From a virus (lineage: Duplodnaviria; Heunggongvirae; Uroviricota; Caudoviricetes), in the IMG/VR virus record IMGVR_UViG_2698536428_000017: a DNA stretch of 40,320 bases, one strand, 5' to 3'. Both the position numbers and the translations under genes were made by a program. Shown here piece after piece: positions 3,788 through 38,254 of the stretch (its first letter is position 1; every line of letters begins with the position of its first letter). The notes under the pieces were generated by a model, which worked only from the letters and a program-made list of their open reading frames with translations, had not been told where the DNA came from and ran no database searches.

Positions 3788-4547
3788 GGTAGCTCACCCC
3801 CGTATGCAACTGACGCGGAGAGGTAAATCTAGCTAACAGGGAACAATCATCCAGTTTAGATTCAGCGCAGACTCTATCAGCCAAGTCGAAGTTCATTTTG
3901 GCAATAGTTTTAGGCTCAAGATTTTTAATATCAACAACATAGCAACCGCTTCCACTAAGCTGAACGAAACCTGTCGTAGCCTTGTATTCACTTAGCAAGC
4001 CCCAGATTATGGATGCTAAGGTCTGGAACTGTTCCTTCGAGCACTGTGTGGCGCTATAGAAATTATCCATTTCTGCAAGGAGTTCTTCTTTGTGCTTCAT
4101 AGCATTACTCCTGCCTTCTGATTCAGAAAGAAGCTTAATGTGCTCTTCCATATAAAATTTTAACTGTTCACGCTCGCCGCAACGGTACGCCCAACTGTAT
4201 GCGTTGTGACTAAAGAGTTTTGTCCGATACTTCTTTGCCAGCGGGACATAGACATCCTTGAGTTCATTATAGCTAAATGTATTAATTAAAATGTGATGAT
4301 AGTGCATTGCCAACGTTACATCGTTTACTTCTAGGCTTATCCTGAGATAACGTAACGCGCTTTCAATCTTTCCGGTTATTGCATCCAGATAAGATAGTGC
4401 AATGTTGGTAGCAGGCGTTGGAGAGACAGAAAGTTCCTCTCGAATTTTCTTTTCAGTGAAGGGATCTAAACTTTCCCTATCCAATAGAAGCGCATTGAAT
4501 TGTTCAATATATTTTTGCGCTTTTTCTAATGGGATGCCTGCCGCCAT
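3774..4547 (-). CDS. Hypothetical protein (moron gene 1), 257 aa
   Basis: ATG at 4547..4545; low GC; no recognisable catalytic motif; inserted between baseplate hub and spike genes. Confidence 0.6.
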   Translation of the reverse strand: MAAGIPLEKAQKYIEQFNALLLDRESLDPFTEKKIREELSVSPTPATNIALSYLDAITGKIESALRYLRISLEVNDVTLAMHYHHILINTFSYNELKDVYVPLAKKYRTKLFSHNAYSWAYRCGEREQLKFYMEEHIKLLSESEGRSNAMKHKEELLAEMDNFYSATQCSKEQFQTLASIIWGLLSEYKATTGFVQLSGSGCYVVDIKNLEPKTIAKMNFDLADRVCAESKLDDCSLLARFTSPRQLHTGVSYHVGN

Positions 4548-4576
4548 GGATTATTTCTCTTACTAAAGGGATTGTG

Positions 4577-4605
4577 ATTGTGAACTTTGAACAATATCTC
4601 GTCAA
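4577..4605 (-). promoter_or_regulatory. Candidate sigma70 promoter for the moron pair
   Basis: Minus strand TTGACG (4605..4600), 17 nt spacer, CACAAT (4582..4577), about 30 nt upstream of the 257-aa start; -10 match is weak. Confidence 0.3.
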
Positions 4606-4642
4606 CCTTAAAGCGCTCATCTCGGAAGATTGACATCAAACT

Positions 4643-4990
4643 TTAGCGTAACGCCTTTTTACAAGGGAATGATCCGATGATTTTAGGCGCATCCATGCTG
4701 TTCTGCAGAAGCTGGACGTTCAGGAAAGCTTTTCCGTTACGCTTCACAAACTCAAAGCCGTAATTGTTGCCATCGCGAGAAGGCATCAGGCCCATGTTAG
4801 TTTTAACGTTGTCCCAGTCATCTTTCTTACCAAGAAACGTAATCTTCTGTGATGTTACCTGTTCACCGTTGATTTTTGTCCAACCGTTATCAGCTGCATG
4901 AAGTAGATATCCGCCGCATTGCAAATCAGCAAAAGCTGCTGAACAAGAAAATAATAACGAAATTGTCAAAACTAACTTCATACGCTTCAT
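4643..4990 (-). CDS. Small secreted or lipoprotein, 115 aa
   Basis: N-terminal signal peptide (MKRMKLVLTISLLFSCSAAFA, AFA-D cleavage or lipobox-like LFSC); two Cys in mature part; about 42% GC; start overlaps stop of hub-like gene. Confidence 0.6.
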   Translation of the reverse strand: MKRMKLVLTISLLFSCSAAFADLQCGGYLLHAADNGWTKINGEQVTSQKITFLGKKDDWDNVKTNMGLMPSRDGNNYGFEFVKRNGKAFLNVQLLQNSMDAPKIIGSFPCKKALR

Positions 4991-6054
4991 GAATAAATCC
5001 TTTGCTGCGCTGAGGACGAAAGTAGATCAGCCGCGCCACGTGCTTCACACATCATATCCATGTACCACGCCTGCCCCCTTGTGTCGCCAGTGTACATAAT
5101 CCCACGCACAATATAAACGCCATCCGTTGCGATGCTGGCAGGCTGCGATGTGGTGCCGCTTAGCGTGATATTTCCATCCGTGTTCTGGTCGGTGATCTGA
5201 CCACCAGTCATCGCAATATCGTTGTTCGACAAGGCGGTACGATACACGGAAGCCTGATCCAGCTGAATGAGTCCGTTAACCCGGATGTTAGGATTAATAA
5301 GCGCGCGGACGTTTACGCCGTTACCGATAGTCTGCTGTGGCATGCCAATAAGCCCGGTAGCGCTGTTGAGCACAATCGCTTCATGAACATATTCGTTATT
5401 CGCCACCATCTGGCGTTGACCGTCCACAAATTGCCATGTTGCGCCACATTGACCAGCTACGTTATCCATAAGATGCCGCGTCATGCCAAAGAGTACCCGC
5501 CCCCGGGGGAATACAGTAGCAGGCATTTCAGGCGTCAGGCCTTCGGTCGCGCCTTTGGCTTCGAAGTCTTTCATCAGCGCACGGTTCACATCAGCGACCG
5601 TGTAACCGGCAGCCAGCGTCTGTGAGGTTATACTGGTGGCAAAAGCCAGATCAGTATCTGCTGCCTGAATCAGGACGTAGGTATCAACCGGACTGTCTTT
5701 TCCTGTGACCGAGTAGCGAATTTCACCGCTGAAAATCAGTCCGTAGTTGCGGCCATCTCTCTGGCCCACGTCCGCCGCGTCAACTTCCCGCACGGTCCCT
5801 ACGTCGCTTGCTGACGCCTCCGGCGCGATACCGTCGTAACCGGCAATCAGACGCACTTTCGAAAATTCCTGCCCGGTGATTCGGTTCACAGTATCTGCCG
5901 AGAGGTTATAAATTTTGATAGTCCCTACCCGGGACGCGCTGCTGATGTTGAACCAGTCGATCGTAAAGGTGACTTTGAAATCACTTAGCTCAATTCCCTG
6001 ACCGTTCCCGTCCACAAGCTGCAGCTCGAAATGTCTCATCCAGTTCTGTGACAT
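4987..6054 (-). CDS. Baseplate hub-like protein
   Basis: 355 aa ORF after tape measure and small tail genes; size and position only. Confidence 0.45.
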   Translation of the reverse strand: MSQNWMRHFELQLVDGNGQGIELSDFKVTFTIDWFNISSASRVGTIKIYNLSADTVNRITGQEFSKVRLIAGYDGIAPEASASDVGTVREVDAADVGQRDGRNYGLIFSGEIRYSVTGKDSPVDTYVLIQAADTDLAFATSITSQTLAAGYTVADVNRALMKDFEAKGATEGLTPEMPATVFPRGRVLFGMTRHLMDNVAGQCGATWQFVDGQRQMVANNEYVHEAIVLNSATGLIGMPQQTIGNGVNVRALINPNIRVNGLIQLDQASVYRTALSNNDIAMTGGQITDQNTDGNITLSGTTSQPASIATDGVYIVRGIMYTGDTRGQAWYMDMMCEARGAADLLSSSAQQRIYS

Positions 6055-22948: not shown

Positions 22949-25103
22949 AAACCTTGCATTTTTTCCCCCCAATTCGCCTTTGGGCACGCTTATACCCGCA
23001 ATTTTGCAAAACATTACTAATTCGCATTTCTTCGCGTTTTCCGATGCGGTCAGGATTTAGCCCAATCGCATCACGCAAAACATCACTTGCGCGTAAAAAT
23101 TCGCAATTTCGCGGAAGTTCATTAGTCATCAGGTCGGGCGTGTCGAGCCATTTCTCTACCGTTTCAAGCCAAGCATCCTTGATGGTGTACTGTTCATGGA
23201 CACTCGCTGCCAGTTGTTCAGCCTCACGGAACTGGATACCCCCCAGACGCTGAAACACCTCACGAGCCTCAGCCCAAAGTAAAAGGAGATCTCTTTTTAT
23301 CGCTTTCACGTCGACTTTCGACACTTCCACGGGGAGCCAGCGACGGTTACCAGTCTTGTCCGCAAGGAATTCGTCCTCATTAGTGGTACCAACGAACACC
23401 AGGCGACGAGGAAACTGGGTGGCGAACTCCCGGTATTTCGGGATCCAGTTTTCGTGAGTACGCGTCACAAACGCTTTGATTGACTCCAGCTCTTTGGTAT
23501 TAAGTCCGCGCAGTTCACCAATCTCTGCCACCAGCCGACCACGCATTTTTCGAGCGAGATCATCGTCTTTTTCGGCAAAAGAGATTTCAGTAAAAAACGC
23601 AGGATCAGGGCTCAGTGCCTCCACTCCGGAAGACTTACCGCAGCCCTGCGGACCAACGAGGATCGGCACCATATCCGCTTTGATGCCTGGCTCCAGTACT
23701 CGCCCCGCCAACGCGGTCCACATGTACATAGACACCGCACGGGTATAAGGCGTGTCGGCGGTACCGAAGTGCGTATGGTAGAAACATTCGATGCGCGGCA
23801 CGCCATCCCACTCCAGTCCGTTCAGCCAGGTGATCGCTGAATCGAATGGTTGTTCATCGGCTGCAAGTAACACCACATCGCGAATAAGTTCACGGCCAAC
23901 AGGTTTAAATCCCCGCTTTTCCATCGTGATGCGCAGGCGCGCATAATCCGCATCGGTGAATGCCCGCCATTGTCCGGATCCTGCCGGGGCAAACATGATT
24001 TCGTCGCGGAACTGGTCAAAGCGAATATCGATGTCCACAAAATCAGAGCGTACTACTGCTTTGGCTGCATTGCTGATGGTTGCCTCGATACGCCCCCATT
24101 TATCACGCTCGAAAGCAGGCAGCGGTAAAGGTTCCGCCACTTCGATGCTGGTCAGATCTTCGAAATCGTCGTTGCGGATCCCGATGGCATTCAGGAAATC
24201 TCCGTCATCACGATGCGCGCAACTGGCATGCAGGCATTTAAAATGCCCCTGCTCAAAGCCTGCGGTTCCCGCAGGAAAATAAACTGTGCTTGTTGGATCG
24301 CCTCCGCTACTGTGGCCGTCTTCAAACGGACAGCGGATATATCGTTCACCGTTTGCGCCATCCAGCAGCGTCCAGCCATTGGCATCAAGATATTCAGCTG
24401 TATCATCCGTCGCGCCGGGCGTGAATGCTGAACGGTCGCGCATCTTCGTGTTGCCCGCTTCGGTGGTTACCGACACAGGGAGTTGTTCAGCCAGGCGCTG
24501 CCACAGCGTTTCAAGCTGCTCACCTGTAATAGCCGGAGGTTCATCCGGCAAACCACCGTCCCATTCAATACGCGCGCCGCTGCTGTGCGTACCACAGGCA
24601 ACGAACTGCTGCCCGTTCGCCAGCAACTCGATAATGCCCATATCCCCCGCCAGGCGATGGATACGCTTACGGAAATCACCATCAACGGCCAGCAGATACA
24701 GACACTTATTACTGTTTGCTCGCCAGCGTCGCGGCGGCGACTCACCCAGAAGTTGCACAAGTGTTTTGCGAATATCTGCCTGAATGTCTTCATCTTCGCT
24801 ATCGCAGTCCAGCGCCAGCCAGCCATGGCCTGTACGCACGCAGATGCCATAATCCGGTTCATTCGACCAGCGGGCAAAATCATGCTCAGTAACAACATGC
24901 CCGGTCCATTGAGCAATACCTGTGACCTGGCGGTCCCGGTTATAGCGACTCGGCGTCTTACCCAACGCTTTCAATTTACTATCAGGGGATATGGTCGCAC
25001 TGGGGTTACATACAACTGGGAGAAGATGAGCAGTCCGCCCCAATACCAGGTCGAAATGAAACCACTCATCAGGCGTAGCTCCCCATGGTTTGCTATCGGA
25101 CAT
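22917..25103 (-). CDS. Primase-helicase (N-terminal primase-polymerase-like domain, C-terminal P-loop NTPase)
   Basis: 728 aa; Walker A in ILVGPQGCGKSSG; domain order resembles P4 alpha / VirE-type replication proteins; last 10 codons overlap the iterons. Confidence 0.75.
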   Translation of the reverse strand: MSDSKPWGATPDEWFHFDLVLGRTAHLLPVVCNPSATISPDSKLKALGKTPSRYNRDRQVTGIAQWTGHVVTEHDFARWSNEPDYGICVRTGHGWLALDCDSEDEDIQADIRKTLVQLLGESPPRRWRANSNKCLYLLAVDGDFRKRIHRLAGDMGIIELLANGQQFVACGTHSSGARIEWDGGLPDEPPAITGEQLETLWQRLAEQLPVSVTTEAGNTKMRDRSAFTPGATDDTAEYLDANGWTLLDGANGERYIRCPFEDGHSSGGDPTSTVYFPAGTAGFEQGHFKCLHASCAHRDDGDFLNAIGIRNDDFEDLTSIEVAEPLPLPAFERDKWGRIEATISNAAKAVVRSDFVDIDIRFDQFRDEIMFAPAGSGQWRAFTDADYARLRITMEKRGFKPVGRELIRDVVLLAADEQPFDSAITWLNGLEWDGVPRIECFYHTHFGTADTPYTRAVSMYMWTALAGRVLEPGIKADMVPILVGPQGCGKSSGVEALSPDPAFFTEISFAEKDDDLARKMRGRLVAEIGELRGLNTKELESIKAFVTRTHENWIPKYREFATQFPRRLVFVGTTNEDEFLADKTGNRRWLPVEVSKVDVKAIKRDLLLLWAEAREVFQRLGGIQFREAEQLAASVHEQYTIKDAWLETVEKWLDTPDLMTNELPRNCEFLRASDVLRDAIGLNPDRIGKREEMRISNVLQNCGYKRAQRRIGGKKCKVWEPLEPRGTT

Positions 25104-25106
25104 GGG

Positions 25107-25307
25107 TTACACCTTTTGTCTAGCTGTCACTTCCTGAAAAAGTTTTTCTATCGCACGTACTGTAGAAAAGCGAGGGTCAGAATGAACCCCGGTAAGAAGC
25201 CGACTAATAGAAGACTGCTTCACGCCTGCAATTTCGGCAATTTGGTTTTGGGTATACCCTGAATCAATCAAGCTTTTGACCATCTCTTGTGGTGTTAGTC
25301 CGGACAT
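25107..25307 (-). CDS. Cro-like HTH regulator
   Basis: 66 aa; HTH (YTQNQIAEIAGVKQSSISRLLTG); GGAGA RBS; divergent from repressor and first gene of the leftward operon. Confidence 0.6.
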   Translation of the reverse strand: MSGLTPQEMVKSLIDSGYTQNQIAEIAGVKQSSISRLLTGVHSDPRFSTVRAIEKLFQEVTARQKV

Positions 25308-25448
25308 ATTTAAGTCTCCACTTTCGTCTATAGCGCAAATTTATACGAAAACGGATTACTCAGCAATACAGCAATTCTATGTCATCCTAGATTAAAATAT
25401 CCGATAACGCATAATCACCGTCCCTGTATACAACATGGATGAATCCAA
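25308..25448. promoter_or_regulatory. Immunity switch region with divergent promoters and operators
   Basis: 141 bp between divergent Cro-like and CI-like genes; candidate leftward -10 TATAAA (25345..25340); motifs ATAGCGCAAAT and ATAACGCATAAT; operators not resolved. Confidence 0.45.
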
Positions 25449-26123
25449 ATGATTGATACTACCGATATCCTTTCTCAAAACATCAAGTACCTGATGGACA
25501 AAGCCAAGATAAGCTCGATAACTGAGCTGGCACGTCGGTTACAGCTGAACCAACCAACGCTACACAGGCTGGTATCAGGAGAGGTGAAAGATCCGAAATA
25601 CGCAACGTTAAAGCAGATCGCCGACTACTTCCACGTGTCACCAATAGACTTGGCAGAAAGGAGCCTTCAAGAAATGGAGAAAGAGGACGCGACAGGTATA
25701 AAAACGTATATTTCTCTTAGGTTTAATAAAGTACCTGTTTTGGGAAACACTCAGCTAGGCGTTGGAGGACTTTGGAGCGACACCCAATATTCAGTAGGTA
25801 GCAGTGATGGTTTCATATACTGGCCGACAAAGGATGAAGATGCATACGCCCTGAAATGTGTTGGTGATTCAATGATGCCTAGAATCAAAGAGGGGGAGTT
25901 CGTAATCGTCGAACCCAACCACGACTACACTCCTGGTGATGAAGTACTTGTGGTTACCCGGGAAGGTGAGGTCATGGTTAAAACCTTCTTGTTCGAACGC
26001 GATGGCCTGTTCCATCTAATGTCTGTAAATGAAGATCATCCACCAGTCAGAGTACCACGCGAAAACATTGAAAAAATCCATTACGTGGCGGGGATCGCCA
26101 AATCCGCGCTACGTATGTACTAA
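25449..26123 (+). CDS. CI-like repressor (N-terminal HTH, C-terminal S24 LexA-like peptidase)
   Basis: 224 aa; HTH region (SITELARRLQLNQPTLHRLVSG); S24 catalytic motifs GDSM and downstream Lys (VMVKTF). Confidence 0.8.
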   Translation: MIDTTDILSQNIKYLMDKAKISSITELARRLQLNQPTLHRLVSGEVKDPKYATLKQIADYFHVSPIDLAERSLQEMEKEDATGIKTYISLRFNKVPVLGNTQLGVGGLWSDTQYSVGSSDGFIYWPTKDEDAYALKCVGDSMMPRIKEGEFVIVEPNHDYTPGDEVLVVTREGEVMVKTFLFERDGLFHLMSVNEDHPPVRVPRENIEKIHYVAGIAKSALRMY

Positions 26124-26153
26124 CCTTTACAGTCTGATAACTTACTTCTGATC

Positions 26154-26185
26154 AAACCGCTCTCCACAAGGGCGGTTTTCTTATT
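26154..26185 (+). terminator. Candidate terminator after the repressor gene
   Basis: AAACCGC...GCGGTTT 7-bp stem followed by TTCTTATTT; the loop is long (11 nt), so weak. Confidence 0.35.
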
Positions 26186-26206
26186 TGCAAAATAATTCAT
26201 TTTCGT

Positions 26207-26235
26207 ATTGACACAAAATCCCATAACGCATATAA
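26207..26235 (+). promoter_or_regulatory. Near-consensus sigma70 promoter (TTGACA-17-TATAAA)
   Basis: TTGACA at 26207..26212, 17 nt spacer, TATAAA at 26230..26235; followed by palindrome CGCATAATTAATGCG at 26244..26258. Confidence 0.4.
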
Positions 26236-26429
26236 ATACGATATCGCATAATTAATGCGTTTTTTAATACTGGCTCTTTAACAAACTGAACCGCGTGACA
26301 GGTAAGCCGCAGTACTCCTGGCAAAACGAAATAGCACCCGATGGGATCGAGGTAAGCGCCGAGTCCGTATGCGTACGGTAAGCGTAGAGGACAACACCGC
26401 GACAAACTGATAAGTCACGCAAGTTGAAA

Positions 26430-26460
26430 CGCCCCGACGATGGGGCGCTTAGTTCCTTTT
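26430..26460. terminator. Hairpin CGCCCC-GACGAT-GGGGCG with U-rich flanks
   Basis: 6-bp GC stem; U-rich sequence on both strands; probably the ancestral terminator of the 174-aa gene, now separated from it by IS2. Confidence 0.4.
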
Positions 26461-26613
26461 GGGGTGGGGTGAAGATCAGTCCATTGAGTCAATCCGAAGT
26501 TCAGCATCTACCACTACACCACTAGACTGGCCCCCTGAATCTCCAGACAACCAGTATCACTTATTTAAGTGATAGTCTTAATACTAGTTTTTAGACTAGT
26601 CATTGGAGAACAG

Positions 26614-26979
26614 ATGATTGATGTCTTAGGGCCGGAGAAACGCAGACGGCGTACCACACAGGAAAAGATCGCAATTGTTCAGCAGAGCTTTGAACCGGGG
26701 ATGACGGTCTCCCTCGTTGCCCGGCAACATGGTGTAGCAGCCAGCCAGTTATTTCTCTGGCGTAAGCAATACCAGGAAGGAAGTCTTACTGCTGTCGCCG
26801 CCGGAGAACAGGTTGTTCCTGCCTCTGAACTTGCTGCCGCCATGAAGCAGATTAAAGAACTCCAGCGCCTGCTCGGCAAGAAAACGATGGAAAATGAACT
26901 CCTCAAAGAAGCCGTTGAATATGGACGGGCAAAAAAGTGGATAGCGCACGCGCCCTTATTGCCCGGGGATGGGGAGTAA
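26614..26979 (+). CDS. insC: IS2 transposase OrfA (InsC)
   Basis: Translation [41 protein letters not shown]... matches IS2 InsC; true ATG at 26614 (track ORF begins upstream). Confidence 0.9.
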
Positions 26980-27842
26980 GCTTAGTCAGCCGTTGTCTCC
27001 GGGTGTCGCGTGCGCAGTTGCACGTCATTCTCAGACGAACCGATGACTGGATGGATGGCCGCCGCAGTCGTCACACTGATGATACGGATGTGCTTCTCCG
27101 TATACACCATGTTATCGGAGAGCTGCCCACGTATGGTTATCGTCGGGTATGGGCGCTGCTTCGCAGACAGGCAGAACTTGATGGTATGCCTGCGATCAAT
27201 GCCAAACGTGTTTACCGGATCATGCGCCAGAATGCGCTGTTGCTTGAGCGAAAACCTGCTGTACCGCCATCGAAACGGGCACATACAGGCAGAGTGGCCG
27301 TGAAAGAAAGCAATCAGCGATGGTGCTCTGACGGGTTCGAGTTCTGCTGTGATAACGGAGAGAGACTGCGTGTCACGTTCGCGCTGGACTGCTGTGATCG
27401 TGAGGCACTGCACTGGGCGGTCACTACCGGCGGCTTCAACAGTGAAACAGTACAGGACGTCATGCTGGGAGCGGTGGAACGCCGCTTCGGCAACGATCTT
27501 CCGTCGTCTCCAGTGGAGTGGCTGACGGATAATGGTTCATGCTACCGGGCTAATGAAACACGCCAGTTCGCCCGGATGTTGGGACTTGAACCGAAGAACA
27601 CGGCGGTGCGGAGTCCGGAGAGTAACGGAATAGCAGAGAGCTTCGTGAAAACGATAAAGCGTGACTACATCAGTATCATGCCCAAACCAGACGGGTTAAC
27701 GGCAGCAAAGAACTTTGCAGAGGCGTTCGAGCATTATAACGAATGGCATCCGCATAGTGCGCTGGGTTATCGCTCGCCACGGGAATATCTGCGGCAGCGG
27801 GCTTGTAATGGGTTAAGTGATAACAGATGTCTGGAAATATAG
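26937..27842 (+). CDS. insD: IS2 transposase OrfB (InsD), DDE catalytic domain
   Basis: 301 aa matching IS2 InsD as recalled; overlaps insC in -1 frame, A6G slippery run present. Confidence 0.9.
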
Positions 27843-27877
27843 GGGCAAATCCAACCACCACCAAAGAGAACTGCTAA

Positions 27878-28402
27878 TCATCTGGCAGGTTGTAACGGTG
27901 CAGGAGTTTTGCCACTGACTTCTATATTTCGGGGAAATTTATATTCAGCGGAGCATTTATGACACTTGAGAATTTTATAAGCGGCATTAGAAGTATGGTA
28001 TTGAAGTATAGACTTCATACCCGACTCATAGCATGTAGTACAAAGATAATGAGGCTTGAACTCAGGATCGTCAGTAGGCTTCAGTACATAGACCACCGTA
28101 TTGGTAATCGGGTGGTACATTTCATAGTTCATTTTCTCACTATCCCAATCCTGTTTCTTTTCCAGAAGGGATTCGAGTTCAACAATGCGCTGTTTAGCTT
28201 CGTTCAAAAGCTCCGTTAGTGCGAATTGTCCAGTACGCGCATCAATTAGTTTATCAAGTAGATCGATAGTTTTACTTTTAACATTGTAATCCACCTGCAA
28301 CGCATTAACTTCTTTTGCTAAATCAACAGCACCTTTCAAAGCACCACCAGCACTAGTGGCCGCCTCAGTTATACGCCGTACAAGTCCTTTTTCTTCAGAC
28401 AT
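27878..28402 (-). CDS. Hypothetical coiled-coil plus zinc-ribbon protein, 174 aa
   Basis: ATG at 28402; C-terminal CxxC (CTTC) and CxxC (CHKC) pairs about 20 residues apart; about 42% GC; convergent with repressor gene. Confidence 0.6.
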   Translation of the reverse strand: MSEEKGLVRRITEAATSAGGALKGAVDLAKEVNALQVDYNVKSKTIDLLDKLIDARTGQFALTELLNEAKQRIVELESLLEKKQDWDSEKMNYEMYHPITNTVVYVLKPTDDPEFKPHYLCTTCYESGMKSILQYHTSNAAYKILKCHKCSAEYKFPRNIEVSGKTPAPLQPAR

Positions 28403-28419
28403 CTTAATTCTCTCTAAAA

Positions 28420-28470
28420 CTATAGGGGTAAAGAGATATTAGCCGAATTCTCGCTGTAGGGGTACAGAGA
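28420..28470. repeat. Two 17-bp direct repeats (CTATAGGGGTAAAGAGA / CTGTAGGGGTACAGAGA)
   Basis: 15 of 17 identical, 34 bp apart (28420..28436 and 28454..28470), in the divergent control region between the 174-aa gene and the rightward operon. Confidence 0.4.
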
Positions 28471-28541
28471 GAGCCATCTCGTCTGACGTGGTTAAAAGCA
28501 GGCATTCGCTGACATCCAAGTAATTGCTGTGTGTAGCCTTT

Positions 28542-28567
28542 GCCCGCCTCAAGTGACGGGCTTTTTT
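28542..28567 (+). terminator. Intrinsic terminator or attenuator upstream of the replication operon
   Basis: GCCCG...CGGGC stem (28542..28546 / 28557..28561) followed by T6 (28562..28567) on plus strand. Confidence 0.45.
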
Positions 28568-28626
28568 ATGTCTGAAAGCGCACTCGCAACAGCGTGCTCC
28601 CCGATATGAAAAAAGGAATACAACCG

Positions 28627-28776
28627 ATGAAACCTGAATACCTCCATCGACTGACGGGGCGCGATGTTCTCCGTTATCGCCGTAAAAACTTCGATTTGAT
28701 GACCGGTCTGGCCGTTGCCACTGCGCTCGGTCTGATCATCACTTTCATTCTCCTTGTAGCGAGGACCACAGTATGA
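28627..28776 (+). CDS. Small membrane protein, about 49 aa
   Basis: ATG at 28627 with AAAGGAA RBS (track ORF begins at an upstream GTG); C-terminal TM helix; stop overlaps next start (ATGA). Confidence 0.35.
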   Translation: MKPEYLHRLTGRDVLRYRRKNFDLMTGLAVATALGLIITFILLVARTTV

Positions 28777-29675
28777 GTTTAGAAACCAGTCTCGAACTTA
28801 ATAATCAACTTCTGGCACAACATAATGCGCTGCTTGAACGTCTTATCCGCACAATGGCATCAGGCATTGTTATGCATCCTGACACGATTTCACGAGTGCA
28901 GGAATGTCGGGATACAGCAACTGAAACTGAAAATATGTCAGCGGCAATGACACTGGATGATCTGGAGTTCAGCGACGTTATCGCACTGGCTGGTTTCTAC
29001 CCGGTAGCCACCCCTATCACAGAAGACATGCTGCAACGTGCTGTTGCCTACCGTGATGCTGAAGGCGATAAACGAGTAGTTCAGATTGATGCTCTCGACA
29101 GCGCATTGCAGGGCGTCAAACGAGCCAGGGCGCTGCTTAAACCTGCTCTCCTGGACCTGTCCCGTAACATCCTTAAGTTCTGGGACGACCTGCCAACCAT
29201 CGGCGAGCGACGTGTTTTTGCCGAGCAGCTACTTGATGCACCTGCGGATGGGCGTGATGAAGTTAAGCCGAAAAAGGCCAGTAACAAAGATGGAGAACGC
29301 ACGGGGCCGTTTTACGTCAAAAATGTATCCGGCACAGCAGCCAGTGAACTCCACACCTTACGCAAGTTGAACGAGATGCTGAAAAAAGGCCATATCGAGA
29401 TCAACCGTGTTGAGTACCTTCAGCTGCAAGAAGAATTTGCACGCAGAGACGCAGCAAATTCCAGCCAGAATCATGACGCCAAAGATGACCATACAATTGA
29501 TTTCGCGGCACTACGCAAACAAGCTGAAGGGTTGATCCTCCAGTTAGCAAAAGGGGGTTACCGGGCAGAAGCTATTGCAATTCTGGAAAAACAGGGAGCC
29601 AGGAAACTTGGTGAAGTAACGGATGAAAATCTCGCTGAAGTAATCACCCTGGCTGAAAAAGCACTGGAGGGTTAA
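28773..29675 (+). CDS. Hypothetical protein, 300 aa
   Basis: ATG with GAGGA RBS; normal GC; no family recognised. Confidence 0.55.
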
Positions 29676-29677
29676 TC

Positions 29678-30979
29678 ATGCCAGACGTTCATGCACAACT
29701 TTCTCCATCATCAGCGCATCGATGGATGCGCTGCCCAGGAAGTCTGGCGCTGGAGGCCACACAACCGGATAAAGAAACAACTTTTGCAATCGAGGGCACT
29801 GCAGCGCACGCGCTTGCTGAAAAAGTTCTACGAAACAGGCAAAGCTACCCGGAACACTACGCCGGATGCAATGTTTCTATGTTTCTCGGCTCATACCCCC
29901 TTCGCGAAAATCCTGATGATACATCTGGCCCACAGGTGGATGATGAAATGGTCGAAGCCGTTGGCCGGTATGTTGATACGGTCTGGACTCTTGCACAGAA
30001 TAATGAACTATTGGTTGAACAACGTGTTGATTTCTCACATATAACGGGTGTGGAAGAATCTTTCGGAACTGCCGACGGCATAATCATTGCTGGTAGCGAA
30101 TTACAAATCCACGACCTGAAATATGGCAAAGGCGTCCGCATTGATGCAGAACAAAATGAGCAACTACAACTGTATGCTCTGGGTGCGCTCGAACAATTCA
30201 GCATGCTGTATGACTTTGAGACTGTAAGATTATTTATTCACCAGCCAAGGCTCAACCACGTTTCAGAATGGTCGTTAACCGTACAGGAACTTCAGTCTTT
30301 CGGTGAACGGGCACTGGAGGCCGCAACCAGTGCGATCCTTGTTCTCAATATTGCTGAATGCGAAGGCATTGAGACACTACCGCTGGAAAACTTCATACCT
30401 GGAGAAAAACAGTGCCGCTTCTGTAAAGCAAAAGCTATTTGCACTGCCCAGAAAATGCAGCATTTACAAACAGCGGCCAGCGATTTTGAAGATCTGACAA
30501 AGCCTGTCAGCGAAATAATCTCCAATGCCAGCGCACGTGTACCTCTGTTAACCATTGAGCAGCTTGCGGAGATCTATAGCCAGGCCGACTTTATTGAATC
30601 CTGGCTAAAGGCAGTACGAGACCGGGTTCACAATGAACTCAATGCCGGACATCCGGTACCGGGGTTTAAACTGGTAACAGGAAAACAAGGTAACCGGGCC
30701 TGGAGTGATGAAGAGGCAGCTCGCGCACTTCTGAAGGACCAGTTCAGGTACAAAACTGAAGAAGTATTCGACTTTAAACTTATTAGCCCCACAAAAGCCG
30801 AAAAACTTATCAAAAAGGCCAGTCCGCGCCGTTGGTCAAAAGTCGAGGCACTGATAACACGAGCTGATGGTAAACCCACCATCGTTCCCGAGTCAGACCC
30901 ACGCCCCGCACTCAATATCAACCCTGTAAATGATTTCGACGACGTATCCGACGATACGCTAACCGCAGACCTCATCTGA
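29678..30979 (+). CDS. PD-(D/E)XK nuclease, Cas4/RecB-like with Fe-S cysteines
   Basis: 433 aa; N-terminal [15 protein letters not shown]; C-terminal C-x2-C-x5-C ([10 protein letters not shown]) with the N-terminal Cys gives the four-Cys pattern of Cas4-like nucleases. Confidence 0.65.
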
Positions 30980-31595: not shown

Positions 31596-32225
31596 TCACT
31601 CAGGAATCTTAATCTTCCTCAATTCTTTATTTAGTTCACAGATCTTCTTCTTAGACGGGAAAGTATCATACATCCAAAAACCAACAGTCTCTAAAACTAT
31701 TGTCATAACCATATACACAAGATAATTTAAAAGGCCTTCATTTTGCCCTATGGAAATAATGCAGATAATAGAAAAAAGGATAAACAGCACAAAACACAGA
31801 AAGGAAAACAGACGACTAATAATAAATAAAAAACCTGAAAAATTAACATTGATGAAAAACACTCCGTTATCTTTCTCTATATAATTCTGAAGCTTAATCA
31901 CCTGATTTATATACTGTCTTTTTTCTAATCTATTGCAAATGTAAATAACATCACTTCGGTTATAAGAAGATTGCAATTTCAGCGCATCACGAATAATTTT
32001 ATCATTTATTCTTTTTTCTATGGCACTCTTATCCTCCTTATCCAGATAACGTTCATACTTAACTAAATATAAAATTAACTTCTTGACATATTTAGGCTCT
32101 TTATACTTATAATTAAAAATGATCTTTCTTATCCAGACTCCCATAACAATCAAACATGAAAAAATATATCCAGCTATTTTCTCCAGATGCTCTGTATGGT
32201 CAATCAAGTATTGGATCATATGCAT
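31596..32225 (-). CDS. Hypothetical multi-pass membrane protein, 209 aa, strongly AT-rich
   Basis: About 23-35% GC in sampled 60-nt lines against about 52% flanking; predicted TM near residues 18-38 and two C-terminal TM helices; antisense to the replication operon. Confidence 0.6.
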   Translation of the reverse strand: MHMIQYLIDHTEHLEKIAGYIFSCLIVMGVWIRKIIFNYKYKEPKYVKKLILYLVKYERYLDKEDKSAIEKRINDKIIRDALKLQSSYNRSDVIYICNRLEKRQYINQVIKLQNYIEKDNGVFFINVNFSGFLFIISRLFSFLCFVLFILFSIICIISIGQNEGLLNYLVYMVMTIVLETVGFWMYDTFPSKKKICELNKELRKIKIPE

Positions 32226-34852: not shown

Positions 34853-35111
34853 ACGTGAAAGCCTTATCGAAAAGCACCTCGTCGCTGAAGTGAAAAAAGC
34901 TGGCGGAGTGGCCTTTAAGTTTGTATCTCCCGGTCACCGCTCGGTACCGGATCGCATTGTCCTGCTACCAGGTGGTCGTATCGTTTTCGTTGAATGTAAA
35001 TCTCCCGGCAAGCCACCACGGCCTGACCAATTGCGCGAACATGAACGTCTGCGAAAACTGGGCTTTACCGTAGTGGTGCTGGATAGCAAGAACCTAGAGA
35101 GGATATTATAA
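34815..35111 (+). CDS. VRR-NUC domain nuclease
   Basis: Motif PDRIVLLPGGRIVFVECK is a PD-(D/E)xK signature typical of VRR-NUC; true start may be the ATG at 34842. Confidence 0.55.
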   Translation: MCFLKSGIQMAYERESLIEKHLVAEVKKAGGVAFKFVSPGHRSVPDRIVLLPGGRIVFVECKSPGKPPRPDQLREHERLRKLGFTVVVLDSKNLERIL

Positions 35112-35115
35112 AAAT

Positions 35116-35685
35116 TTAGTCAATGCCTTTTTGATTGAACTTCTGATTCTCCAGTATGCTTTGCAGCTCAATATTATCATTTGCAGCGGTTTGTTTATGC
35201 TCATGATATTTTTCTTGCGTATAATTTCTTTCTCTTAGTTTCTGTGCGTAATTATTAGAAATAATATCATGACGATCTTGTAATACTTGTTCAAGTTGAC
35301 TTTTAAAGTCCTCTATCTTTTCATTAGAAATAACATTTTTGTACTTTTCAATATCACGGCGAAGTTCTTTTTCTTTCTTCTTATTAATGCTTAATAACTG
35401 TCGATTAACGCTACCTAAGGACCATTTAAACCCAATCGACTTTATCCAATGCGCCAGAAACATAGCGCAACTGGGAAGCATTAATAAAAGAAATGGCTTT
35501 ATTGTATTTAAATCAGAACCAATATACGGAAAACGACCGTCCCACGAGGACACCAGTAATGTTAAAAAACCAGTGATGCCACCAGCAGCAACATTAGAAA
35601 TCAGAGGGACTTTTTCGTAGCTATCAGGTTTAGAAGCGCTACTCAAACGTCCCTCCTTTGACTGATCTTCCAGCACGAATGGCAT
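35116..35685 (-). CDS. Cassette gene 3: membrane protein with two TM helices and a charged coiled-coil C-terminus, 189 aa
   Basis: ATG at 35685 with weak RBS, overlapping the previous ORF by 47 nt; low GC; convergent with VRR-NUC, 4 bp between stops. Confidence 0.5.
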   Translation of the reverse strand: MPFVLEDQSKEGRLSSASKPDSYEKVPLISNVAAGGITGFLTLLVSSWDGRFPYIGSDLNTIKPFLLLMLPSCAMFLAHWIKSIGFKWSLGSVNRQLLSINKKKEKELRRDIEKYKNVISNEKIEDFKSQLEQVLQDRHDIISNNYAQKLRERNYTQEKYHEHKQTAANDNIELQSILENQKFNQKGID

Positions 35686-35887
35686 TCATTGCAATTTTGT
35701 AAAATTCATCATCAGAAGAGACATCAACGACATCGCGACGGACAACTCCTTCTGAGTCAACACATTCAAGAACAAGATGATGTTTAGGCATAAGCGCAAA
35801 GCGTAACCGGTCAAACCCCATCTTAAGAACCCAATATAGTACGGGAAGCAGGCTAAAAAAAGCCAGCCAAAAAGCAAAAGCAATCAT
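35639..35887 (-). CDS. Cassette gene 2: small membrane protein, 82 aa
   Basis: ATG at 35887 with GGGGAGGGGG RBS; N-terminal TM helix (IAFAFWLAFFSLLPVLYWVL); competing 65-aa ORF in another frame starts with TTG and was not preferred. Confidence 0.5.
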   Translation of the reverse strand: MIAFAFWLAFFSLLPVLYWVLKMGFDRLRFALMPKHHLVLECVDSEGVVRRDVVDVSSDDEFYKIAMNAIRAGRSVKGGTFE

Positions 35888-35910
35888 AGCCCCCTCCCCA
35901 TGTGAATCTA

Positions 35911-36789
35911 CTATAAGATGCCGTGTACTTTAACAACTATGTACGTTTTGTCCAGCGAATTCAAGTTCTCACGGACGAGCAAATCAACGCAGTAAGCATC
36001 ACTAAAAACACCAGGTTCTCTTCCCGTACTAACACGTTGTAAGAACTCAGTATCTTCTATAGACACGCTGATTGTGTCATCGCCATAGTTGACTCGCCAG
36101 CCTGTGTTTTTATCCTTATGAATAGTCAAAAATGTGATTAGAGCCTCTTCAATCACCCTTTCAGACAAGGACTGCACTACAGGAACGCGCCTATATCTGA
36201 ACGGTTCAATATTATCTTCGTGCACCTTAATCAGCTCAACCCCCTGTTGAGTTGAAATTTTAAGCGATTCGTATCCTTCCTTTTGCAAAGGATTATGAAT
36301 TAACTTCGATAAGGATTTGCGTATGCTTGGTGAGGCAAGTAAAGGCCGGAAATATGACGGGGCTATAATTTCCTCACCATCATCCATAACTATTTTACAG
36401 TCTCCTTCCGCTGTTAAAGTCAACCGTTTTATTTGCCTACCATTGATCTGACGAATTAAGTCAATGAGAGTATTTCCTGCTGCGAGTGCAGTTGTACCTC
36501 CAAGCCCAATAATGCTTAATATATTCAAATGGTCAAGTGGATTTTGAATAACATCAATCAAATACTCAAATGAGCCTTCCTTAAAAGGCTCAACCTCAAC
36601 ATTAATACACTCACTAGTGCCATTGACAACCAAATTAACTTCTTTAAGCAAGTTGTTTAGTCCATTCAATGACTCAGTTAAAACATCCAAATCTATTTTA
36701 TGATCTGCTAGTGCGGGACCATCATATTTAACAACTAATTTATCAGTAATATTTTCTTCTTGCTGGACATCTGTATAAGCTGAGGTCAT
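35911..36789 (-). CDS. Cassette gene 1: hypothetical soluble protein, 292 aa
   Basis: ATG at 36789 with AAGGA RBS; about 33-38% GC; no recognisable motif; divergent from SNF2 gene with 67 bp between starts. Confidence 0.6.
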   Translation of the reverse strand: MTSAYTDVQQEENITDKLVVKYDGPALADHKIDLDVLTESLNGLNNLLKEVNLVVNGTSECINVEVEPFKEGSFEYLIDVIQNPLDHLNILSIIGLGGTTALAAGNTLIDLIRQINGRQIKRLTLTAEGDCKIVMDDGEEIIAPSYFRPLLASPSIRKSLSKLIHNPLQKEGYESLKISTQQGVELIKVHEDNIEPFRYRRVPVVQSLSERVIEEALITFLTIHKDKNTGWRVNYGDDTISVSIEDTEFLQRVSTGREPGVFSDAYCVDLLVRENLNSLDKTYIVVKVHGIL

Positions 36790-36856
36790 AACTGTTCCTT
36801 TCGAAATAAATAATTAAGCTATTACTACATAAGTTCATTCATGGAGATACAATACC

Positions 36857-38254
36857 ATGGACTATGCTATATTTTCACCTCACCCCTACCAAGATCTCAT
36901 CATCAATCATCAAATCGACATTATGCGCTGCAACATCTGGGCAGGTATGGGAATGGGTAAAACCGTGGCAACGCTCACTGCGCTGGAAGATCTTTTTATG
37001 GCAGGGGCAGAAACACGCCCCGCACTGGTCCTCGCGCCGCTACGTGTTGCAGCAAACACCTGGCCGGATGAAGCAGTGAAGTGGGGGCATTTGCGCAATA
37101 TCGAGGTGCAGCCGATTGTTGGTAATGCCAAAGCGCGCTCTACGGCGCTGGCGAACAGCAACGCAAGCGTGTTCACCATCAACTACGATAACCTTGTCTG
37201 GCTGGTTGAAGAATTGGGAGAACGATGGCCGTTCGGTATTGTCATTCCAGATGAAAGCACCCGGCTAAAATCCTTCCGGCTGCGAGGTGGTGGTAAGCGC
37301 GCGGCGGCACTGGGCAAAGTGGCGCATAAGTATGTCCGGCGCTGGATAAATCTCACCGGTACGCCAGCACCGAACGGCCTGGTAGATTTGTGGGGACAAT
37401 CGTGGTTTGTGGACCAAGGGCAACGTCTCGGGCGCACTTACGGTGCGTTTACCTCACGCTGGTTCAACTCGATACAGTTTCCGGGACAGAGCTGGACTAA
37501 ACTGGAGCCTTTTGCTCACTCACAGGGTGAAATACAGCGAGCATTAGCCGATGTGACCCTCTCGCTAGATGCGGCCGACTGGTTCGATATCAAAGACCCC
37601 ATCCATAACGTAATCCGCGTGGATATGCCGCCGAAGGCCCGTCAGCAGTATCGTGAAATGGAAAAGGAAATGTTCCTCGAGCTGAATGGCGAAGGCATCG
37701 AAGCACCGAACGCCGCGGCAAAGACACTGAAGTGTCTTCAAATCGCCAGTGGCGCAGTATACACAGACGACACCGGAAGTTGGTCAGAACTGCATGACAC
37801 CAAACTACAGGCGCTGGACAGCATACTGACCGAAGCAGCTGGCGCACCTGTGCTGGTTGCTTATCACTGGAAACACGATCTTGAACGCTTGCTTAAAGCA
37901 TTCCCTCGCGGTCGTCACCTCGACCAGGATCCACAGACACTGCGCGACTGGAATTCCGGAAAGATTCCTGTTCTCTTTGCACACCCAGCCAGCGCGGGCC
38001 ACGGCCTGAACATGCAGGACGGCGGAAATATACTGGTATTTTTCTCACACTGGTGGGACCTGGAGCAATATCAGCAAATTATTGAACGTATCGGCCCCAC
38101 CAGGCAGATACAGGCCGGACACAATCGTCCGGTATTTATTCACCACATTATTGCTGCCGACACTATGGACGAAATGGTGATGGAGCGGCGCAACTCAAAA
38201 CGAACAGTGCAGGACATCCTGCTCGATGCCATGAAAAAGAGAGGTATAGCATGA
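36857..38254 (+). CDS. SNF2-family helicase
   Basis: 465 aa; Walker A AGMGMGKT; motif II DEST (IPDESTRLK); C-terminal helicase lobe. Confidence 0.8.
   Translation: MDYAIFSPHPYQDLIINHQIDIMRCNIWAGMGMGKTVATLTALEDLFMAGAETRPALVLAPLRVAANTWPDEAVKWGHLRNIEVQPIVGNAKARSTALANSNASVFTINYDNLVWLVEELGERWPFGIVIPDESTRLKSFRLRGGGKRAAALGKVAHKYVRRWINLTGTPAPNGLVDLWGQSWFVDQGQRLGRTYGAFTSRWFNSIQFPGQSWTKLEPFAHSQGEIQRALADVTLSLDAADWFDIKDPIHNVIRVDMPPKARQQYREMEKEMFLELNGEGIEAPNAAAKTLKCLQIASGAVYTDDTGSWSELHDTKLQALDSILTEAAGAPVLVAYHWKHDLERLLKAFPRGRHLDQDPQTLRDWNSGKIPVLFAHPASAGHGLNMQDGGNILVFFSHWWDLEQYQQIIERIGPTRQIQAGHNRPVFIHHIIAADTMDEMVMERRNSKRTVQDILLDAMKKRGIA

Follow-up and report, generated by a model that had tools for sequence, protein, structure and literature searches.

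Prophages that carry abortive-infection genes raise the question of how they avoid killing themselves on induction. The locus studied here, at positions 27,878 to 28,470 of the IMG/VR virus record IMGVR_UViG_2698536428_000017 (Caudoviricetes; 40,320 nucleotides, the whole of which we call the window), poses it in concrete form: a gene for a protein of 174 amino acids, ORF174, is preceded by two 17-bp direct repeats, and both the role of the protein and that of the repeats call for an explanation. Sequence comparison places ORF174 in the Rip1 ("ring interacting pore") family of pore-forming anti-phage proteins, as a new member that is carried as a prophage moron, and its regulatory region is a member of the cassette that precedes sieB in phages P22 and lambda and that includes the antisense RNA sas. 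A 174-aa "hypothetical protein" of an E. coli prophage family (enterotoxigenic E. coli (ETEC) H10407, O103:H2 12009, IAI1 and others) can thus be named as a Rip1-type defence, and since Rip1 stands behind the same cassette that reportedly gives P22 immunity to its own SieB, the self-killing question can now be put to a direct test with Rip1. Novelty lies more in the structure of the cassette and its many different cargo genes than in the rip1 gene itself.

The Rip1 family was reportedly described by Patel et al. in 2026 (Nature 651:1060), with a cryo-EM structure of HK446 Rip1 (PDB 9oox). ORF174 matched chain 9oox_L of HK446 Rip1 with an E-value of 8.4e-45 (residues 3-159 against 3-160), the profile of its family did so with an E-value of 4e-49, and ORF174 and HK446_037 were 47% identical over their whole length. 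Consistently with the original prediction of a low-GC protein with a helical N-terminus and a CxxC...CxxC motif, the open reading frame was confirmed, AlphaFold2 (mean predicted local distance difference test score, pLDDT, 76.6) modelled N-terminal helices at residues 3-16, 21-34 and 39-92 and a beta-rich C-terminal domain at residues 93-157, and the gene had a GC content of 41% (0.41, vs 0.50 for the whole window). Across 48 aligned distant homologues, all four cysteines (C121, C124, C147 and C150) and Y93 were invariant, with Y105 and H118 nearly so. The strongest amphipathic segment spans residues 5-26, likewise in HK446 Rip1, and no transmembrane segment was predicted in ORF174. Both hallmarks of Rip1, an N-terminal amphipathic helix and a C-terminal domain of the ring-contacting kind, were therefore found, in a prophage context in which the gene is flanked by CI/Cro-like, VapE primase, DUF2800, DUF2815 and Q antiterminator genes. 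ORF174 shares with HK446 Rip1 its size, helical N-terminal half, four-cysteine C-terminal domain, genomic slot and upstream cassette, so the combination of Rip1 and cassette is not unique to the window; it differs in a C-terminal tail longer by 10 residues, in lying within a DUF2800/DUF2815/VapE replication backbone and not in a classical lambdoid early region, and in the RprA-like terminator that follows the cassette in the window.

An exhaustive profile search gave the family a size of 2669 cluster representatives, nearly all of 150-175 aa, whereas a word-indexed homologue search had returned 17 close relatives only. Reference collections carried no name for it: nothing exceeded the curated thresholds of Pfam, NCBIfam or PADLOC (PADLOC-DB 2.0.0 dates from 2023 and predates the description of Rip1), Pfam zinc-finger matches were weak and sub-threshold, the PHROGs match was PHROG 1244, annotated "unknown function", and structure comparison with BFVD gave one unnamed match. 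Identity as a SieB protein was considered and rejected, as ORF174 is 14-17% identical to lambda and P22 SieB in the alignment, the N-terminal hydrophobic region of the SieB rows is missing from it, and it has no transmembrane segment.

Rip1 is described as a single-protein prophage defence that is harmless alone (review PMC13434031; also PMC12908700). According to the review, in E. coli phages the 11-mer small-terminase ring becomes surrounded by 12 Rip1 subunits, the arrangement shown by the cryo-EM structure of HK446 Rip1, the ring partner in Pseudomonas phages being the portal of the infecting phage; the C-terminal half touches the ring and the N-terminal amphipathic helices form a pore that causes premature cell rupture, and the founding Pseudomonas gene is located between terminase genes, outside any sieB slot (PMC13434031). 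By analogy, a lysogen would make ORF174 in a form that stays inert until, late in the infection, a superinfecting phage has put together its small-terminase or portal ring; the four-cysteine domain and the C-terminal half that carries it would then dock around the invader's ring, and the N-terminal helices would open an inner-membrane pore, with lysis before progeny mature. For ORF174 itself we infer ring assembly, membrane permeabilisation and phage protection from this homology, and its likely targets would be phages whose terminase or portal rings are open to docking.

The original prediction had proposed an anti-repressor, an exclusion factor or a nucleic-acid-binding defence protein. An exclusion or defence function was right in kind, given the Rip1 family and the sieB slot. 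That ORF174 acts as an anti-repressor or as a nucleic-acid-binding zinc-ribbon protein in the lysis-lysogeny switch is, however, very improbable: the CxxC...CxxC motif, the proximity to the immunity region and the sub-threshold zinc-finger matches point that way, but nothing reached the curated cut-off in Pfam or NCBIfam, position and strand fit sieB-type morons and not ant-type genes, and ORF174 is a full-length homologue of a solved defence protein. In that homologue the cysteine-bearing C-terminal half contacts a phage protein ring, not nucleic acid, according to the review (PMC13434031), which leaves both roles unsupported.

The position of the gene agrees with this assignment. Downstream of the CI-like repressor gene (25449..26123, + strand) come, in order, a terminator, a pL-like promoter, a leader, rip1 on the opposite strand and the early genes. 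HK446_037 and hkaP of HK620 also follow closely after N in antisense orientation, within the early-left operon (in HK620, hkaQ lies between N and hkaP; a literature search on hkaP returned unrelated acronyms only), sieB of lambda and P22 is placed likewise, antisense where N ends, and the sequenced phage vB_EcoM-606R2 has a 189-aa paralogue (45% identity) at the same place. By this comparison of gene order, ORF174 occupies the sieB slot, antisense within the early-left operon. Convergence with the repressor gene, as first proposed, held as far as the strands are concerned (CI-like gene +, ORF174 -), but a 1331-bp IS2 element between the two genes had been overlooked.

We then turned to the repeats, whose number, length and near-identity were as originally described (15 of 17 positions identical, 34 bp from start to start; Table 1). 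A search of the 40-kb window with the degenerate 17-mer, allowing 2 mismatches, found these two places only; shuffled sequences contained 0.01 matches on average, and none of 100 contained two or more. The repeats are probably functional rather than a product of chance, and they flank a predicted promoter at about -35 and +1. In the P22 record NC_002371 the sieB RNA starts within the first repeat and the promoter extends across the second; carried over by alignment, this annotation predicts a start of rip1 at 28429 (- strand), with a -10 element TAATAT and a weak -35, so that the rip1 mRNA is predicted to begin inside repeat 1 from a promoter lying between and over the repeats. A consensus promoter scan did not find this sieB-type rip1 promoter.

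A survey of the cassette covered about 350 loci collected with three pattern scans. Five repeat types were distinguished, TGTAGGGGT (lambda, P22, HK620 and the window), GTTGGGGAA, GACTGTGGAA, GCTGGGGAG and TGTGGGGG; the two copies agree with each other within each cassette, their spacing is 34 bp in the window type and 32-35 bp overall, and a single-hairpin form without any repeat was also found. In 63 distinct two-repeat cassettes, the best -10 match between the repeats scored a mean of 5.0 on a 6.5-point scale on the cargo strand vs 4.1 on the other strand, and in 46 of these cassettes its end lay 6-9 nt short of repeat 1; all the repeat types examined had a -10-like hexamer between their two copies.

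The repeats had been proposed to be operator sites. A function and a position around a promoter are supported, but identity with this prophage's CI/Cro operators can be rejected, because those operators are different (AATATCCGATAACGCATA-type, ATAACGCATA-type, 18-bp sites at 25396-25413 in the cro-cI gap, 26215-26232 and 26233-26250, while the 17-mer occurs only at 28420 and 28454), because the same repeats are present in phages of different immunity specificity (lambda, P22, HK620 and HK446), and because repeat 2 tops a covarying hairpin of RNA type whose G-U pairs belong to the strand opposite the gene. Two further candidates were discarded by eye, a LexA box (CTGT-N8-ACAG) in repeat 2 on account of its spacing, and a second promoter with repeat 1 as its -35, which is not conserved. 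In some annotations and gene calls, sieB or rip1 is lengthened at its 5' end across the cassette, so that the protein begins "MYPYSEKS..." (phage As3, locus L002, 1401-2048; protein P0009); this extension translates the repeat region (TGTACCCCTACAGCGAGAAA) and is probably an annotation artefact.

The P22 sas RNA is reported, in later papers that cite Ranade and Poteete 1993, to protect P22 from its own SieB, and is said in such papers to do so by switching translation to an internal product, Esc. Positions 28420-28505 of the window shared about 82% identity with the DNA that precedes sieB in 122 phage records (BLAST). At the sequence level, the 85 bp upstream of rip1, both repeats included, are thereby shown to be homologues of the stretch of P22 that holds the sieB promoter and encodes sas. 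From P22-infected cells a 127-nt RNA has been sequenced and called sas (PMC13397905, Table 2). This RNA contains both CUGUAGGGGU copies and the conserved block described below, and its strand is equivalent to the + strand of the window. The window and the P22 sieB/esc/sas and lambda sieB loci have in common, as homologous sequence, the promoter, mRNA start and antisense-RNA regions, with both repeats, the conserved block and the antisense position inside the early-left operon; they differ in their cargo, which is unrelated, SieB having membrane-spanning-looking hydrophobic stretches and ORF174 no transmembrane segment.

Covariation suggests that the cassette folds as RNA. The stem of the second hairpin (HP2), which contains repeat 2, covaries, one pair being UA in 15, AU in 14, UG in 2 and GC in 2 sequences and another UA in 26 and CG in 6, and because of its G-U pairs it is favoured energetically as + strand RNA over - strand RNA in 72 of 86 distinct variants (mean -7.9 vs -6.0 kcal/mol). 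The repeat 2 hairpin is followed by a nearly invariant block of 32 nt, which fits an H-type pseudoknot with interleaved stems S1 and S2. Both stems were perfect in 42 of 44 distinct variants, at least 9 pairs being reached by 1.7% of shuffles. In sequences collected without constraining the block, compensatory changes were found in S1 (CCAC/GUGG, CGCG/CGCG, UCACG/CGUGA, CGGG/CCCG, CCUC/GAGG and CCGC/GCGG) and in S2 (GCCUG/CAGGC, GCCGGG/CCCGGC and GCCUU/AAGGC). In a structure-blind MAFFT alignment, 80.8% of the pseudoknot cells paired, vs 24-43% when the partners were slid, and the covariation score exceeded those of all 500 shuffles; since MAFFT misregisters S1 in rows with one extra loop base, the stems were also counted by a separate stem search. 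Pseudoknot cells held G-U in 26 cases vs A-C in 8, an excess that favours an RNA on the + strand, and the three stem substitutions specific to the window, read from the block sequences, all give + strand G-U pairs. The sequence comparisons thus show that hairpin and pseudoknot covary. No Rfam family matched the cassette.

These data bear on two other explanations of the repeats. The first holds that they are DNA operators, bound at -35 and +1 by a host or phage protein that represses or activates the rip1 promoter. Their place on either side of the predicted promoter, the near-constant spacing (34 bp in the window type, 32-35 bp in others) and the joint change of both copies between cassette types, as a single recognising protein would produce, are all in keeping with it, but phages whose CI, Cro and N proteins and cargo genes are unrelated carry one and the same repeat type, and no gene travels with the cassette, so that there is no candidate regulator. 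Moreover, the prophage's own operators differ and the 17-mer is found nowhere else in the window, a repeat-free single-hairpin cassette exists, and repeat 2 lies within an inverted repeat whose arms covary and whose G-U pairs work only as + strand RNA. We consider this explanation quite unlikely.

The second takes the cassette for a strong portable moron promoter and leader on the cargo strand, with no antisense control of Rip1; the block would then act as an UP or -35 element, or as an upstream promoter of the kind read in the single-hairpin form, and the repeats would be left over from the tandem duplication of a unit made of promoter and hairpin. Compensatory variation in two interleaved stems is not something a promoter requires, and the block of the two-repeat form is almost invariant yet, by eye, lacks a -10 element. 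In the single-hairpin form, by contrast, the block read by eye on the cargo strand offers TTCACC, 16 nt and TGgTATnnT, which could plausibly be an extended -10 promoter; shuffles fold less well than the window's - strand, and the breadth of cargo (at least 24 unrelated families) is what a generic expression module would show. The ratio of G-U to A-C cells (26 vs 8) favours an RNA on the + strand, however, and an RNA of exactly such extent and strand accumulates in P22 infection (PMC13397905). A promoter without antisense control is accordingly an unlikely account.

The reading that we consider probable is that Rip1 is expressed in the lysogen under a sas-type promoter and antisense cassette; as the repeats lie within this promoter and antisense-RNA cassette, they would be RNA and promoter elements of a portable unit and not repressor operators. 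In this model, rip1 would be expressed in the lysogen from the sieB-type promoter. On induction, or on infection by a related phage, early-left transcription would cross the cassette and yield a structured + strand antisense RNA, in which two hairpins in tandem, each bearing the repeat motif at its top or close to it, precede the H-type pseudoknot. This RNA would cover the 5' untranslated region, ribosome-binding site and start codon of rip1, and its pairing would shut off Rip1 synthesis, so that the phage would not set off its own defence; sas is said to act in this way on SieB in P22. The early-left promoter is the likely source of the antisense transcription across rip1.

In the antisense system of IS10, RNA-OUT and RNA-IN, pairing takes place between a hairpin loop and the 5' end of the mRNA. 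The cassette resembles it, by analogy only, in that the 5' end of the target mRNA lies opposite the apex of an antisense hairpin, here the proximal one, so that pairing of the rip1 mRNA could start from loop to free 5' end; such a geometry might account for the agreement of both hairpin tops with one mRNA end. In sequence the cassette is unrelated to IS10, and it has two look-alike hairpins and a pseudoknot.

Several points weigh against antisense control of Rip1. No sigma-70 consensus for the start of a + strand RNA was found in the scan, so the + strand RNA may arise only by processing of early-left read-through. A conserved internal start, for an Esc-like product, is not evident in Rip1, so the translational switch described for P22 may not apply. 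The first hairpin (HP1) is poorly defined in the window and less certain than HP2; the + strand of 28403-28572 folded no better than shuffles (z 0.03) and the - strand did (z -2.7), by a minimum-free-energy z-score tool that cannot score the pseudoknot; and in this strain the IS2 element may block the proposed antisense read-through.

Table 1. Coordinates of the features discussed, in window positions.
Feature	Position	Strand	Details
Early-left (pL-like) promoter	26208..26250	+	TTGACA, 17 nt, TATAAA (26208-26236); two CI-type operators overlap; read from sequence
IS2 insertion	26523..27853	+	1331 bp; target duplication ACCAC (5 bp); InsC/InsD-type ORFs; annotated IS2 in NZ_AP045181
rip1 homologue ORF174	27878..28402	-	ATG start, 174 aa; amphipathic N-terminal helix, long helical region, C-terminal four-cysteine zinc-ribbon domain
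Hairpin HP1 (less certain)	about 28409-28436	+	palindrome 28409-28425 / 28420-28436
Repeat 1	28420..28436		CTATAGGGGTAAAGAGA; predicted +1 at 28429 (-) within; HP1 apex and 3' arm on + strand RNA
Predicted sieB-type rip1 promoter	28436..28466	-	-10 TAATAT (28441-28436), weak -35 overlapping repeat 2; from P22 homology
Hairpin HP2	28449..28472	+	lower stem UCUC/GAGA, upper stem CUGUA/UACAG, GGGG tetraloop 28459-28462; contains repeat 2
Repeat 2	28454-28470		CTGTAGGGGTACAGAGA; overlaps -35 region, lies within HP2
Predicted H-type pseudoknot	28472..28503	+	S1 28472-28477/28488-28493; S2 28481-28485/28499-28503; loop 3 28494-28498 AAAAG
RprA-like 3' module and intrinsic terminator	28518..28571	+	stem 28542-28546 / 28557-28561, U-tract 28562-28567

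The survey indicates that the cassette is not confined to one kind of gene. By a crude open-reading-frame call, the at least 24 unrelated cargo families behind it are led by SieB (100 loci), a 148-aa family (64 loci) and Rip1 (42 loci); when nine other cargo families were tested, only a GhoS-like 94-aa family reached the Pfam cut-off (PF11080, E 1.5e-7). Small zinc-ribbon proteins are also among the cargo, most of which has no Pfam match (loci L013-L356). At least a part of the 191-bp intergenic stretch 28403-28593, most often the sas-like core, had matches in 1073 of 5426 E. coli genomes (~20%). The cassette looks like a conserved pseudoknotted RNA of many enterobacterial prophages that marks a hotspot of exchangeable, mostly uncharacterised cargo, and the cargo families are candidates for new accessory or defence genes of prophages. 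More tentatively, and with some doubt, the sas region may be one instance of a widespread RNA module absent from Rfam, consisting of one or two hairpins, mostly GGGG-capped, an H-type pseudoknot whose third loop is A-rich and a sieB-type promoter, which would serve as a portable self-immunity switch by silencing a resident defence gene through a nuclease-resistant antisense RNA made when the early-left operon is transcribed in lytic growth. The hairpin-plus-pseudoknot architecture, the repeat types and the breadth of cargo were not found described in the searchable literature, to which access was limited, and searches linking sieB with a pseudoknot gave author-name matches only; the novelty of the cassette is thus a lead and not a claim of priority.

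Downstream of the cassette on the + strand lies an RprA-like module ending in an intrinsic terminator, which a terminator scan missed because its 10-nt loop exceeds the limit of the tool. Rfam family RF00034 (RprA) matched 28458-28571 with 45.5 bits and an E-value of 3.2e-4. Membership in this family was rejected, as the match is below the gathering score of 70 and only the 3' ~50 nt align well. RprA is a host small RNA that pairs with rpoS. The last ~50 nt in the window (AAUUGCUGUGUGUAGCCUUUGCCCG...CGGGCUUUUUU) are close to the RprA 3' domain and terminator, whereas the rpoS-pairing stretch, read from the alignment, is not conserved and the 5' part is the sas-like cassette. In the related prophage L357 (NZ_AP045179) the same module follows a small + strand zinc-ribbon gene, with no antisense moron; because it follows a different + strand gene there, the module belongs to the phage backbone and not to the cassette. 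On our reading, this terminator ends + strand transcripts that have crossed the cassette, and the module could release an RprA-like, Hfq-binding 3' fragment.

The strict consensus promoter scan did not call the early-left promoter. The IS2 element, a complete copy, lies 24 bp beyond the rip1 stop codon, with this promoter on one side of it and rip1, the cassette and the early genes on the other; a polar effect on early-left transcription may cripple induction, or the element may block antisense control of rip1. A match to at least 80% of window positions 25000-29700 was found in one of 5426 complete E. coli genomes (NZ_AP045181), in which the match takes in the IS2. Among the matches listed, the relatives (ETEC H10407, O103:H2 12009 and IAI1) align in two pieces that make up 72% of the same interval, as expected if the 1331-bp IS2 is missing in them.

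Directly downstream of the early-left promoter, at 26245-26265, a short hairpin followed by T6 resembles a promoter-proximal terminator that would need antitermination. The leader (~26270-26420, + strand) has three GGTAAGC repeats; it is conserved, being present also in the heteroimmune relative L357 (1040-1170), and had no Rfam match. Just past the RprA-like terminator, an open reading frame at 28594-28776 (+ strand) encodes 60 aa from a GTG start, with a 49-aa version in relatives in RefSeq; it has a membrane-helix-like hydrophobic stretch near its C-terminus and overlaps the start of a 300-aa early gene by 4 bp. Farther on, a 209-aa open reading frame at 31596-32225 (- strand), with long membrane-spanning-looking hydrophobic stretches, is placed antisense, with the DUF2815 gene on one side and the DNA polymerase gene on the other, in a region of GC 0.33-0.38 and has a moron-like appearance. 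Further low-GC islands of the window are at 4001-5000 and 35001-37000.

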